Below, piece by piece: positions 1-4,079 of a stretch of 4,079 bases of DNA. Every line of letters starts with the position of its first letter. The stretch's first letter is position 1. The DNA lies in the IMG/VR virus record IMGVR_UViG_2657244940_000015. The stretch is one strand, 5' to 3'. A program made the translations under genes and the position numbers. This DNA is from a virus (Duplodnaviria > Heunggongvirae > Uroviricota > Caudoviricetes). The notes under the pieces are model-generated. The model had not been told where the DNA came from, made no database searches, and saw only the letters and a program-made list of their open reading frames with translations.

Positions 1-2010
1 GATGGCGGTGGTCAGCAGGCGGCTGTTCTCATCGCTTCCACTGGTCAGGCGCAGACTGAAGCGCACGCCCTTCACCACCCTCGGCGTGTCCCATTTCGCC
101 AGCGCCAGATACTGGCTGTCAGCTGCGCTCACCTCCACCGTGAGGTGCTGTACTGCCGGTGGGATAACGCTGTTCAGGGTGCCTGACTGCGGCTCAAAGC
201 GGGCTCCGTTATCCACAATGGCTTCTTTTTCCGGTACGTGCTGCACCGCCGTGATGGCAAAGGTGCCGTCCGTGTTTTCCCGGATGGAGACACAGCGGAA
301 CAGGCGACGGCGCAGTGACGGCAGGGAGAGTCCCCACACCCCGTATGTCTCCACACCATCAGGCAGGGTACTGACCTGTATCCGGTCCGGCGCGGGGTGT
401 GCGGTGATGTCCACACTCACCGGCTTACCGCTGCCGTTAATCAGGTTCACCGCCGATGTACCTGTCTCCGGCAGGGTAACCTCACGGTCCAGCGTCAGGG
501 TGCGGGTGGCAGCATCAATGGACAGGATACGTCCGCCGGTCATAGTCCCGGCATAGTCGTTATCACAGATTTCAATAATGTCACCCGGTGTGTGACGCAG
601 CCCCTGTGACCCGAGCGTGAAGTCCACCGTCTGCGTTTCCAGCAGTTCGGTCTTTATCACCCACAGACCTGCACGGTGAGCCTGACCGCGGCTGGTACAG
701 CCAAACGCATCCATCTTCAGCAGATTGCGTCCGTAGCGCAGTATGGCTTCCGGGTCTTCCACCAGTTCCGTGTAGGTCTGCCAGCCGTTCTGCGGGTCGG
801 TGTAATTCACCTCCACCGCCGTGTGCCGGTCCTTCAGGGCACTGAAGCTGTAGCGGAACCCCACGCCGTTATCATCCACCACCACATCGCTGTTGGTGTA
901 CGGCCACACCACATCCGACGGGCGGTCCTGAACGAACGTCAGCGTCTGGCCGTTCCATACCGGCATACAGCGCATCGCCGAGCAGAAATCACTGAGAACG
1001 TCCCACGCCTTACGCTGTTGTGCCAGGTACGCATTAAAGGTCATCCGCGGCTCTGTGCCCCCGAAACCATCCGGGACCGTCTGGTCGCAGTACTGCCCGA
1101 TGGCATACAGCGCCCACTTGTCCACATCCGCCGCCCCCAGACGTTTTCCCATGCCGTAGCGCGGGTGAGTCAGCATGTCCCACAGACACCAGGCCGGATT
1201 GTTACTGTATGCCGGTTTCAGACTGCCGTCCCAGATACCACTGTACGTGCGTTTTTCCGGGTCATAGTTTGACGGCACCTGGATGATGCGACCGCGGATA
1301 TGGTAGTTCACCGTCATCTGCTGGCCGCCGAACTGCTCCGCATCCACCTGCAGCCCCACAATGGCCGTGTTCGGGTAGCACTGTTTCACATCGATAATTT
1401 CGGTGTATGACGACCAGAGCGTCTTATTCTGCAGCTGGTCCGTGGTGCTGTCCGCCGTCTCCCTGACCATCCGGATGTTAAAAGGACGGGGAGGCAGATT
1501 ATCCAGAATCACCGACGCCAGAAACTGCGAGGTGGTCTTGCCGTTAATGGTGACATCCTTTTCCGTCATCCATTTACCACCACGCTCAAGCTGAATCAGC
1601 AGGCGGACAGACGTCGGGTTACGGTCACCCTTTGACGTGGTCTGCACCAGTGACTGCACCCCGAAGGTCACCCGCAGGCGGTCAATGTTCGCGGACGTAA
1701 TGGTGCGCGTCACCGGTTTTGCCTTCGTCACTTCCACGCCCAGTACAGTTTCAGCTCCGGAGGACTCAAAGCCTTCCGGTGGTGTCTGCTCCTGCTCCCC
1801 GGCGCGCCAGACCGCCGTCACACCGTGTATCACGGGATTACCGTCCGTGTCCGTCAGCGGGGTTTTGTTCACCAGGATACTCTGCAGTCCCTTCACCGGG
1901 CCTTCTATCGGTCCCTCACCAACCGCATCAATCACGCTCATCATCTGCGTGGATTTGAGATTATCCTTCGCCTCACGAGGCGTGTGTGCCTTACCGCCAC
2001 CTTTTCCCAT
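1..2010 (-). CDS. J: Tail tip host-specificity protein J (lambda gpJ homolog), N-terminal 670 codons; 3' end lies beyond the left edge of the window
   Basis: Minus-strand ATG at 2010-2008 preceded by a purine-rich SD (GGGGAAGG). Translation begins MGKGGGKAHTPREAKDNLKSTQ..., closely matching the lambda gpJ N-terminus as I recall it. I scanned every codon in this frame from 2010 to 1 and found no stop (670 sense codons). It is absent from the supplied ORF track only because it has no in-window stop. Confidence 0.9.
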   Translation of the reverse strand, partial: MGKGGGKAHTPREAKDNLKSTQMMSVIDAVGEGPIEGPVKGLQSILVNKTPLTDTDGNPVIHGVTAVWRAGEQEQTPPEGFESSGAETVLGVEVTKAKPVTRTITSANIDRLRVTFGVQSLVQTTSKGDRNPTSVRLLIQLERGGKWMTEKDVTINGKTTSQFLASVILDNLPPRPFNIRMVRETADSTTDQLQNKTLWSSYTEIIDVKQCYPNTAIVGLQVDAEQFGGQQMTVNYHIRGRIIQVPSNYDPEKRTYSGIWDGSLKPAYSNNPAWCLWDMLTHPRYGMGKRLGAADVDKWALYAIGQYCDQTVPDGFGGTEPRMTFNAYLAQQRKAWDVLSDFCSAMRCMPVWNGQTLTFVQDRPSDVVWPYTNSDVVVDDNGVGFRYSFSALKDRHTAVEVNYTDPQNGWQTYTELVEDPEAILRYGRNLLKMDAFGCTSRGQAHRAGLWVIKTELLETQTVDFTLGSQGLRHTPGDIIEICDNDYAGTMTGGRILSIDAATRTLTLDREVTLPETGTSAVNLINGSGKPVSVDITAHPAPDRIQVSTLPDGVETYGVWGLSLPSLRRRLFRCVSIRENTDGTFAITAVQHVPEKEAIVDNGARFEPQSGTLNSVIPPAVQHLTVEVSAADSQYLALAKWDTPRVVKGVRFSLRLTSGSDENSRLLTTAI

Positions 2011-2113
2011 ACAGCCTTCCCCTGAATAAATTAACCGCCACTTGCCATTCCGTACAGAAGTCGGATATCCTTCGCCCGAAAAGCATGAAACACATTTCTG
2101 CCATGCTAAAGAG

Positions 2114-2148
2114 AAACCCCGGTATCAGCAGATACCGGGGTTTTCTTT
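2114..2148. terminator. Strong hairpin with U-rich tails on both strands (bidirectional intrinsic-terminator-like) in the I-J spacer
   Basis: Perfect 13-bp stem AAACCCCGGTATC (2114-2126) / GATACCGGGGTTT (2131-2143) with loop AGCA. Followed on plus by TCTTT and on minus by CTCTTT. Confidence 0.5.
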
Positions 2149-2213
2149 CATGTCCACCGATAATCCTGTTGGTAAAAACCGGTAATGGCATAAAAATTCT
2201 GAATATCTTCACA

Positions 2214-2243
2214 TTTTCACAAACTGACTGTGGCGCGTATAAT
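2214..2243 (+). promoter_or_regulatory. Sigma70-like promoter candidate (TTTTCA -N18- TATAAT), oriented antisense to the tail genes
   Basis: Perfect -10 hexamer TATAAT at 2238-2243 and a -35-like TTTTCA at 2214-2219 with 18-bp spacing, in an AT-rich stretch (about 2160-2300). Predicted TSS near 2250. Confidence 0.3.
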
Positions 2244-2310
2244 TTCGCTGCGTTAGTGTTTTTTTGCCCGAGTAACAAAAACAACTCCTTAACTCTAATC
2301 TTTGTCTGTC

Positions 2311-2345
2311 CCCGCAGCTCCGCGATCACTGCGGGATTTTTTTAT
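2311..2345 (+). terminator. Plus-strand rho-independent terminator candidate ending 6 bp from the I stop codon
   Basis: Stem CCCGCAG (2311-2317) / CTGCGGG (2329-2335) with an 11-nt loop, followed by A + TTTTTTT + ATT (2336-2346). On the minus strand the hairpin is followed by GACAGACAAAG, so it is plus-strand specific. Confidence 0.4.
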
Positions 2346-2350
2346 TCTTT

Positions 2351-3031
2351 TTACCCCTGCCGCCCGATAACCACGACCTTTCCGCACCCGCCTTCATCAC
2401 GGGTACTGATGTCCTGGGATATACGGCGGGAGCCAACCAGCATTTCCCCGTAAGGCACCGGCATCGGGTTACCCTGGGCAATCATGTTGTCCAGTGACGA
2501 AAAATACGTGTTCTGTCTGCCGTTATCCGTTGCGCGGTAATCCGGTGTTTTTGCCTTCGGGGCCAGCATCTGGGCCACACCACCCAGAATCATGCTGGCC
2601 CCCAGTGAAAACAGCATCGTGGTGGCAGAAAAACCGCCGGCACTCAGGGCTGTACCCCATAACGCCATCGAGGCACCGGCAGTGAGGAAAGAGCCCACGA
2701 TGGCTGCCGCCCCCAGCACAATCTGCAGTCCACCCTTTCCGGCCCCGGCCAGTCGCGGCACAATATGGATAACCGTTCCCTCACTCAGTGGTTCGTGAAG
2801 GCGGGCATACACCGCCTCCGGTGCCGTATCCTCACCGGCAATGCGTATCTGGTACCAGCCTTCGTTCATCTGACGGCGAAAGCCCGGCACCTGCATCGAC
2901 AGTGCGCGGATGGCTTCCGCTGCCGTGTTCACATACAGGCTGAGGCGGCGGCCAAATCGTTGTAAATCCCCGTGAAGGCAGATGCGTGCCAGTGGCGGTG
3001 ACGCCAGACAGAATGCGTTCGTCGTTGCCAT
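2351..3031 (-). CDS. I: Tail tip assembly protein I (lambda gpI homolog), 226 aa
   Basis: ORF from the track (MATTNAFCLASPPLARICLHGDLQRFGRRL...QGNPMPVPYGEMLVGSRRISQ...) resembles lambda gpI in length (223 aa in lambda) and sequence, including the hydrophobic Gly/Ala-rich central segment. SD-like GGGAGAGG lies about 11 nt upstream of the ATG. The start sits 103 bp inside the K reading frame, as in lambda. Confidence 0.88.
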   Translation of the reverse strand: MATTNAFCLASPPLARICLHGDLQRFGRRLSLYVNTAAEAIRALSMQVPGFRRQMNEGWYQIRIAGEDTAPEAVYARLHEPLSEGTVIHIVPRLAGAGKGGLQIVLGAAAIVGSFLTAGASMALWGTALSAGGFSATTMLFSLGASMILGGVAQMLAPKAKTPDYRATDNGRQNTYFSSLDNMIAQGNPMPVPYGEMLVGSRRISQDISTRDEGGCGKVVVIGRQG

Positions 3032-3918
3032 TTTTCGGAATACCTCTCCCGTTTACTCAGTTGTTCAGGCAGATGGTGAAGCAGTTCACCGTTGCCGCAG
3101 TAAATGGCGGCATGATTAGCCACCGATGCGCCGAAGCAGCACAGCAGGATATCGCCCGGCAGTGCAGAGGACAGGGGCACCCGGTAAAAGCCCGTTTCCT
3201 CCATATTGTCCAGGTAAAGGTTCTGACCGTTGCACCACCAGTCATCCTCACGGTGAAAATCCGGCATATCAATGCCTGCCAGATGGTATGCATCCCGGAA
3301 CAGCGTGTAACAGTCCGTCACCCCGTGCGCAAAGCGCCGTCCTGTCAGATGTGGCACACAGCGGAATTTGTGAATGTCACCCCGGCTGACCAGCCACCAG
3401 GGCAGTGCGCTTTTTATCTGCAGCCGCCGGTCAGCCTCGCTCAGCCAGGGCAGACCACCGGGATGACTGTGGACCAGTGCCACAATCTCCCCCTGCATCT
3501 CTGCCCGCAGCCAGTCTTCCGGTGCGATACGAAAATACGCCTCAGGCTCTGCAGAGATATTCACGCACGGCTGGTACTGGTTGCCCTCCGGCGTGCTTAT
3601 CACGAAGCCGCACGACTCCGCAGGCGCACACCGCCGGGCATGCGCCAGAATCGCTGATTCAGTCTGTGTCATGGGATTTACTGCGAAAGACTGCACGGCC
3701 CCATCAACGCGGGTGATGGCGTTAACCGGGCAGACCGTTGCGCAGGGTGCATCTTCACAGTGGTGACAGAGCTGCGGCGCAGATTCTTTTTCATTGAGCA
3801 TCACTCTCAGGCGCGGCATTGATTGCAGGCCGTGCTGGCGATGCGTCTCTGAACAGGCAGCCTCACAAGTGTGGCAGCCGATACAGAGCGTGGAGTCAGC
3901 AATTACAAAACGATTCAC
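2929..3918 (-). CDS. K: Chimeric ORF: N-terminal 82 aa HycB/HyfA-type 4Fe-4S ferredoxin fragment fused in frame to a full-length tail tip assembly protein K homolog (JAB/MPN + NlpC/P60). A K-only product could start at the internal ATG at 3672 (247 aa)
   Basis: 329-aa ORF with GTG start at 3918 and SD GAGGA 7 nt upstream. Residues 1-76 carry CIGCHTCEAAC (CxxCxxCxxxC) and CHHCEDAPCATVCP (CxxCxxxxCxxxCP). From residue 83 (MTQTESAILAHARRCAPAESCGF...) the protein matches lambda gpK, including the JAMM motif HSHPGGLPWLSEAD (HxHx7SxxD) and the NlpC/P60-type Cys in GVTDCYTLF. The internal ATG at 3672 has no obvious SD. Confidence 0.8.
   Translation of the reverse strand: MNRFVIADSTLCIGCHTCEAACSETHRQHGLQSMPRLRVMLNEKESAPQLCHHCEDAPCATVCPVNAITRVDGAVQSFAVNPMTQTESAILAHARRCAPAESCGFVISTPEGNQYQPCVNISAEPEAYFRIAPEDWLRAEMQGEIVALVHSHPGGLPWLSEADRRLQIKSALPWWLVSRGDIHKFRCVPHLTGRRFAHGVTDCYTLFRDAYHLAGIDMPDFHREDDWWCNGQNLYLDNMEETGFYRVPLSSALPGDILLCCFGASVANHAAIYCGNGELLHHLPEQLSKRERYSEKWQRRTHSVWRHRHWHASAFTGIYNDLAAASACM
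3673..3918 (-). pseudogene. hycB: 5' fragment (about 77-82 codons) of a formate-hydrogenlyase-type Fe-S subunit gene (HycB-like), truncated after the second Cys motif and fused to phage K
   Basis: MNRFVIADSTLCIGCHTCEAACSETHRQHGLQSMPRLRVMLNEKESAPQLCHHCEDAPCATVCPVNAITRVDGAVQ matches my recollection of the E. coli HycB N-terminus nearly residue for residue. Similarity ends at ...GAVQ, where an intact HycB would continue with further Cys motifs. The gene symbol is from memory and was not verified by search. Confidence 0.5.
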
Positions 3919-3990
3919 CAGGCATTCCTCAGGTGATTGTCATTTTTGACGAAAACATGCCGATGAAATGTCATTTTCGACACTCATCGA
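3919..3990 (-). promoter_or_regulatory. 5' leader of the chimeric ORF: SD plus two tandem palindromic operator-like sites (TGTCATTTTYGAC x2, 31 bp apart)
   Basis: SD GAGGA is the reverse complement of plus 3926-3930. Direct repeat of 13-mers at 3938-3950 (TGTCATTTTTGAC) and 3969-3981 (TGTCATTTTCGAC), each an inverted repeat GTC-N6-GAC (second copy TGTC-N6-GACA), spaced about three helical turns apart. Confidence 0.35.
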
Positions 3991-4079
3991 CACGCCCATC
4001 CCCAAACAGGCGTAACGCCTGCAAAACGGGCAAAGCCTCAGCTCATGCTGCCGGGCTTTGTCCCTTTACCAGTTGGCTT

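Follow-up and report, generated by a model that had tools for sequence, protein, structure and literature searches.

A putative FhlA enhancer in the hycA-hycB spacer of a short contig that joins hyc sequence to lambdoid tail-tip genes

The window analysed here is a stretch of DNA of 4,079 nucleotides, which a look-up of exactly matching proteins identified as the entire record CDRA01001286.1, a 4,079-bp contig of NCBI assembly GCA_000947375.1; no mention of this assembly was found in the literature. All genes of the contig are carried on its minus strand. Taken in the direction of their transcription, its features are the following.

4043..4079, minus strand: 3' end of hycA, last 12 codons plus TGA stop (stop codon 4045..4043); the contig terminates here
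3919..4042, minus strand: hycA-hycB spacer, 124 bp, placed by mapping onto hycA and hycB as annotated in strain A42 and K-12
3987..3993, minus strand: third conserved hexamer, (G)TGTCGA (hexamer 3987-3992), 10 bp upstream of the TGTCGA of the distal site
3969..3982, minus strand: putative distal enhancer site of FhlA type, TGTCGAAAATGACA, copy 2 of the repeat plus one base; equals the published consensus
3938..3951, minus strand: putative proximal enhancer site of FhlA type, CGTCAAAAATGACA, copy 1 of the repeat; matrix score 11.96
3930..3927, minus strand: hycB Shine-Dalgarno sequence GAGG, within the hycA-hycB spacer
3690..3918, minus strand: hycB codons 1-76, with the GTG start at 3918..3916; 99.7% identity to E. 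coli A42 hycB
3918..2929, minus strand: hycB'-L'-K open reading frame, 329 aa, reading in frame across the join
3689..3690, no strand: blunt join of host hycB and lambdoid prophage, at which BLAST matches split, placed also by three-way alignment
2929..3689, minus strand: end of L (3 codons plus stop), then tail-tip gene K (ATG 3671..3669; Prok-JAB and NlpC/P60)
3031..2351, minus strand: tail gene I (Lambda_tail_I), tail-tip module
2011-2350: I-J gap, 340 bp, without annotated gene
2010..1, minus strand: 5' part of tail gene J, tail-tip module

Host and phage DNA meet in this contig. Positions 1-3689 are lambdoid prophage, comprising J, I, K and the end of L, with a best identity of 97.3% in a megablast comparison with 5,426 complete E. 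coli genomes, and positions 3690-4079 are truncated hycB and hycA, 99.7% identical to strain A42 and found by the same comparison in every one of those genomes (5,426/5,426). The segment ahead of hycB, 3919-4079, is identical to E. coli K-12 MG1655 at 161/161 positions and, as judged from its sequence, is ordinary E. coli chromosome, comprising the hycA-hycB spacer of 124 bp and, beyond it, the final 37 nt of hycA; annotation places the start of hycB at the GTG of 3918..3916. An earlier note on this DNA had surmised that the ferredoxin gene might be hycB and the region ahead of it the hycA-hycB intergenic region, and the identity to K-12, together with the presence of the sequence in all complete genomes, bears this out. 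On the phage side, the plus strand of the I-J gap, which is antisense to the tail genes, carries a strong sigma-70-like promoter at 2216-2243 (11/12 matches) and terminator-like hairpins at 2113-2144 and 2319-2335, with no match in Rfam. E. coli prophages share this spacer, as do 53 phage records (PPompW and Stx-converting phages), and it may harbour a small antisense RNA or a moron.

The spacer between hycA and hycB contains two copies of a 13-nt sequence, TGTCATTTTTGAC at 3938-3950 and TGTCATTTTCGAC at 3969-3981, which are identical at 12/13 positions, are spaced 31 nt from start to start, and lie ahead of the hycB GTG at distances of 20 and 51 nt. Their number, spacing and exact coordinates are as the earlier note had given them; its description of the copies as palindromic applies to the arms, which are short (GTCA/TGAC in copy 1, and TGTC/GACA, 4 bp, in copy 2 after extension to 3982), and fails for the A/T-rich centre, which is without symmetry. 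Recurrence of the 13-nt sequence is unusual for a window of this composition, shuffled windows yielding a mean of 0.14 matches against the 2 observed. The bare pattern GTC-N6-GAC, which the note had proposed as a query for motif collections, is by contrast commonplace, with an average of 1.17 matches in shuffles and at least two in 69/200 of them. Both sites match a published matrix for FhlA.

FhlA activates the formate regulon in response to formate, as an enhancer-binding protein that depends on sigma-54. A position matrix derived from 13 characterised FhlA sites, with the consensus TGWC-RAWRAT-GWCA, is available from a study of the Proteus protein (PMC7658346). Scored with this matrix, the distal site (3969-3982) attains 16.36, the maximum possible, a value reached by 0/300 shuffles, and it and the proximal site (3938-3951) are the top two scores in the window; over 6.4 kb of the hyc-hyp locus of A42, the three top scores are these two sites and the hyc upstream activating sequence (UAS) in the hycA-hypA spacer. 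The proximal score is modest when taken alone, with 0.18 equal or better matches expected per shuffled window. As the matrix probably includes these very sites, both were subtracted from its counts and then rescored, which lessens the circularity without removing it: the distal site retained 15.14 of a possible 15.72 and the proximal site 11.05. The consensus of Leonhartsberger, as given in a review (PMC4987338), is phrased differently, as CATTTCGTACGAAATG, and is fitted by the sites as half-sites only, its CGAAATG half-site appearing as CGAAAATG and CAAAAATG. A text search of the literature for the site sequence itself returned only an unrelated plant-virus preprint.

The hycB locus was then compared across 80 species of Enterobacteriaceae, including members of Escherichia, Salmonella, Citrobacter, Klebsiella, Raoultella, Kluyvera, Enterobacter, Lelliottia and Leclercia. 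The proximal site, as CGTCAAAA[AG]TGAC, was recovered from 80/80 species, always at -33+-1 relative to the start of hycB, with a second copy at -62 in 2/80. Paired TG[TA]CGA hexamers, corresponding in E. coli to the third hexamer and the left half of the distal site, occur in 77/80 species and are spaced by 10 bp in 75/77; in an alignment of 40 species the hexamer columns are invariant, and the other columns of the spacer, like the 3' end of hycA, are poorly conserved. Spacing between the second hexamer and the proximal site falls into two classes differing by about one helical turn, with 60 loci at 30-31 bp and 16 at 18-22 bp, and the E. coli spacings of 10 and 31 bp place at least two UAS sites on the same face of the helix. 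In Enterobacter, Lelliottia and their relatives, a deletion of ~12 nt (loci L057, L058, L061, L064, L065, L072, L074 and L083, at about 1440-1470) removes the right half of the distal site (TGACA) and shortens the spacing by one helical turn, with the TGTCGA hexamers and the proximal site left intact.

Conserved blocks, a drifting spacer and helical phasing together form the footprint expected of protein-binding DNA under a face-of-helix constraint, and the comparison thus yields a clean phylogenetic footprint of three putative FhlA elements over 80 species. The three elements in the window, at 3938-3951, 3969-3982 and 3987-3993, are by this evidence under selection as DNA sequence. That the repeats exceed chance is argued by the 13-nt repetition, the match to the FhlA matrix and the conservation across species taken together.

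Promoters near the repeats were sought on the same strand. No sigma-54 promoter is present in 3600-4079, where the best score is 8.3 versus 15.3 for the hyc and 18.5 for the hyp promoter when scored alike, and no sigma-70-like promoter was detected on the minus strand in 1900-4079. ChIP-seq has located sigma-54 upstream of hycA and of hypA, the latter being activated by FhlA (PMC4591121). In reference genomes, the hyp promoter lies ~700 bp and the hyc promoter ~570 bp from the element, the contig ending before both, and a promoter of hyp type is found 700-790 bp from hycB in 80/80 species. hycB is transcribed from outside the window, its sigma-54 promoter being the one ahead of hycA. A further sigma-54-like sequence, TGGCACATCTACTGCA, was noted inside hycA and likewise outside the window (L001, 3731-3746, minus strand), with a score of 14.9 against 15.3 for the hyc promoter; it is located ~70 nt into the gene in the orientation of hyc, and some of the 80 species have a counterpart at about the same position.

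Since the consensus is that of an enhancer-binding protein and the region has no promoter of its own, the two repeats and the third TGTCGA hexamer very probably constitute a putative FhlA enhancer, or UAS, of the formate regulon, and not a set of operators. The earlier note had called attribution to FhlA speculation; the match to consensus and matrix makes it the best-supported reading. The note's other proposal, that these are operators of a leader driving the genes downstream, finds no support: the region is devoid of sigma-54 and sigma-70 promoters, and the consensus belongs to a protein that acts at a distance. Short inverted arms, a tandem arrangement and a position within 20-65 nt of the hycB start codon would indeed suit a dimeric repressor or activator at a sigma-70 promoter just upstream of hycB, but there is no such promoter on this strand for it to control, the sites have the consensus sequence of an enhancer-binding protein, and the proximal site, just 20 nt from the start codon, allows no space for a promoter and leader. 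We therefore regard operator function as extremely improbable. A promoter-proximal operator was set aside as a candidate, there being neither a sigma-70-like nor a sigma-54-like promoter on the minus strand in 3919-4079 which the repeats could overlap or abut.

An alternative of a different kind is that the repeats act in RNA, as an intercistronic hairpin of the hycA-hycB mRNA that controls processing, stability or translation of hycB. A 180-nt minus-strand RNA does fold strongly (-74.7 kcal/mol, z = -5.3) into a structure whose long hairpin has the distal site at its tip; however, inverted repeats bound by protein would by themselves give a strong fold in E. coli, and RNAalifold applied to 40 species did not recover the hairpin, its consensus energy being -6.3 kcal/mol with a covariation term of -0.16. 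None of the 13 predicted pairs (0/13) shows a compensatory change. Conservation is moreover block-wise in the primary sequence, and the 12-nt deletion seen in several genera takes out one arm of the hairpin. This reading is rejected as very improbable because the 40-species fold shows neither the hairpin nor compensatory pairs, and a structured intercistronic RNA element, strongly folded in the single sequence yet without support from covariation, was dropped as a candidate; the spacer has no Rfam match at E <= 1. Two smaller hairpins of the minus strand were also observed. The Shine-Dalgarno sequence and GTG of hycB lie inside a small conserved hairpin, CACC...GGTG (3916-3937), which shows only one-sided changes across species, and just past hycA a CAGGCGTTACGCCTG hairpin followed by TTTGGGG (4003-4017) has the look of a weak terminator and is not conserved beyond Escherichia.

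For the putative enhancer, the question of its target promoter arises. The hycA-hycB enhancer probably serves the divergent hypABCDE-fhlA promoter, which in K-12 is ~700 bp distant and which the window does not include. This choice of target is made on background knowledge and on geometry: the hyc UAS is 30-60 bp from the hyp promoter, and the hycA-hycB element is ~700 bp upstream of it. A hyp enhancer between hycA and hycB is said to have been described by Lutz et al. in 1990 (reportedly Mol Microbiol 4:13), and the same placement is reportedly to be found in Schlensog et al. of 1994 (J Biol Chem 269:19590) and in Leonhartsberger et al. of 2000 (Eur J Biochem 267:3672), the three reports being said to include FhlA footprinting and deletion data. 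A search of full-text literature found no primary statement placing the hyp UAS between hycA and hycB. The hycA-hycB FhlA element is in any event an already known, textbook piece of the E. coli formate regulon.

By the general scheme for enhancer-binding proteins (PMC3844500), formate-bound FhlA would oligomerise on sites lying on the same face of the helix, the 31 bp between the repeats corresponding to three helical turns. Looping of the intervening DNA would then bring FhlA into contact with sigma-54 RNA polymerase waiting as a closed complex at a promoter far away, and ATP hydrolysis by the activator would open that promoter. The sigma-54 promoters of the locus are situated in the hycA-hypA spacer, and the sites themselves start no transcription of hycB or of genes further downstream.

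Whether any of this reaches the phage genes depends on the join at 3689|3690, since it is because of this blunt join only that K, I and J follow hyc sequence. At the join, hycB breaks off after codon 76 and the frame continues with the final three codons of tail gene L: in the three-way alignment, the hycB sequence ...GTGCAGT directly abuts CTTTCGCAGTAA, which represents these three L codons and the stop, with no shared base or microhomology. Megablast searches found no complete E. coli genome among the 5,426 that holds both halves together, nor the join in plasmids, and a 24-mer spanning it had no exact match in genome, metagenome or viral collections. The fusion protein is recorded in one contig alone, with no other HycB-K fusion among the protein matches listed; seemingly longer fusions among the top matches were K proteins with internal duplications. 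An attachment junction between prophage and host was discarded as an explanation, the join being situated inside L, 9 nt before its stop codon and in the middle of the late operon. A simple deletion between hyc and a neighbouring prophage was also considered, and the data place no prophage near hyc. Among the proteins P0001-P0006, several are singleton K proteins from short contigs in which segments of K are duplicated internally. These look like assembly errors, for which multiple similar prophages are the suspected cause; such duplicated singletons on short contigs imply that the region is often mis-assembled in drafts, which bears on the trust to be placed in the join.

On balance, we lean towards an assembly or library chimera as a likelier account of the join than a real rearrangement. 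A real join would create a fusion of hycB codon 76 to L, place K, I and perhaps J under the FhlA- and formate-dependent hyc promoter, and possibly give rise to a HycB(1-76)-K protein, and we hold this to be a tentative, lesser possibility. It is favoured by a reading frame that stays open and in register over the join, by the lack of terminator-like sites from hycA to I on the minus strand (2930-4079), by the status of the sequence as a deposited NCBI contig, and by a blunt boundary without microhomology, which is unlike a mis-join in a k-mer graph. Against this, chance alone would give an in-frame fusion 1 time in 3, and the join is a singleton, found in none of the 5,426 complete E. coli genomes and in none of the further collections searched, at a place 9 nt short of the L stop codon that is no phage attachment site. 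The host portion, moreover, is only 390 nt long and ends in single-copy sequence, about the length of one read or insert; the record number, 1286, points to a very fragmented assembly; and obvious assembly duplications affect K genes on other short draft contigs.

Should the join be real, formate would act via FhlA and the sigma-54 hyc promoter to drive HycB(1-76)-K, K, I and J, and formate hydrogenlyase would be broken, an outcome that we consider unlikely as a whole. The co-transcription of K and I with a formate-responsive operon foreseen in the earlier note would then hold, but through the hycA promoter rather than through the repeats. Hydrogenase 3 would in that case be inactivated by an allele private to this isolate, and the control of three tail genes by formate would be incidental. 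More generally, where a host regulatory region precedes phage genes in a short contig of a fragmented draft, a chimera should be suspected for as long as the join lacks confirmation from reads or PCR.

With respect to known systems, the phage portion of the contig resembles the lambda-type K-I-J module, its K, I and J being 96-97% identical to those of E. coli prophages; it differs in that hycB' replaces L and everything upstream of L, and in that the join has no phage late promoter or attachment site. The enhancer-binding proteins NorR and GlrR provide analogies for the host element, the former with three GT-N7-AC sites and the latter recognising TGTC-N10-GACA (PMC4987338). As in the hycA-hycB spacer, several short inverted repeats are bound there by an oligomerising, looping AAA+ activator, and GlrR shares the TGTC/GACA arms, whereas the length of the spacer within each site (6 in the hycA-hycB sites) and the regulator are different, so that these are analogues and not homologues.

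Closer relatives are found within the formate regulon. The UAS elements of fdhF, hydN-hypF and hyfA are assigned to the same regulator and consist of inverted units of the GTC..GAC type (for example CGTCAAAACTGACG upstream of fdhF), but their matrix scores are far weaker, at 7.5-9.6, and each occupies the usual place ~100 bp upstream of its own sigma-54 promoter. The nearest counterpart is the hyc UAS in the hycA-hypA spacer, which belongs to the same locus and regulon and has a high FhlA matrix score (15.4). That UAS precedes the hycA sigma-54 promoter by roughly 60-100 bp. The hycA-hycB element, by contrast, follows this promoter at ~570 bp and is ~700 bp upstream of the hyp promoter, and it possesses in addition a separate third site, CGTCAAAAATGACA, 31 bp away. 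In both, the arrangement TGTCGATGA(G)TGTCGAAA(A)TGACA recurs, with paired TGTCGA hexamers about one helical turn apart, and the core string reads TGTCGATGATGTCGAAATGACA in the hyc UAS and TGTCGATGAGTGTCGAAAATGACA in the hycA-hycB spacer.
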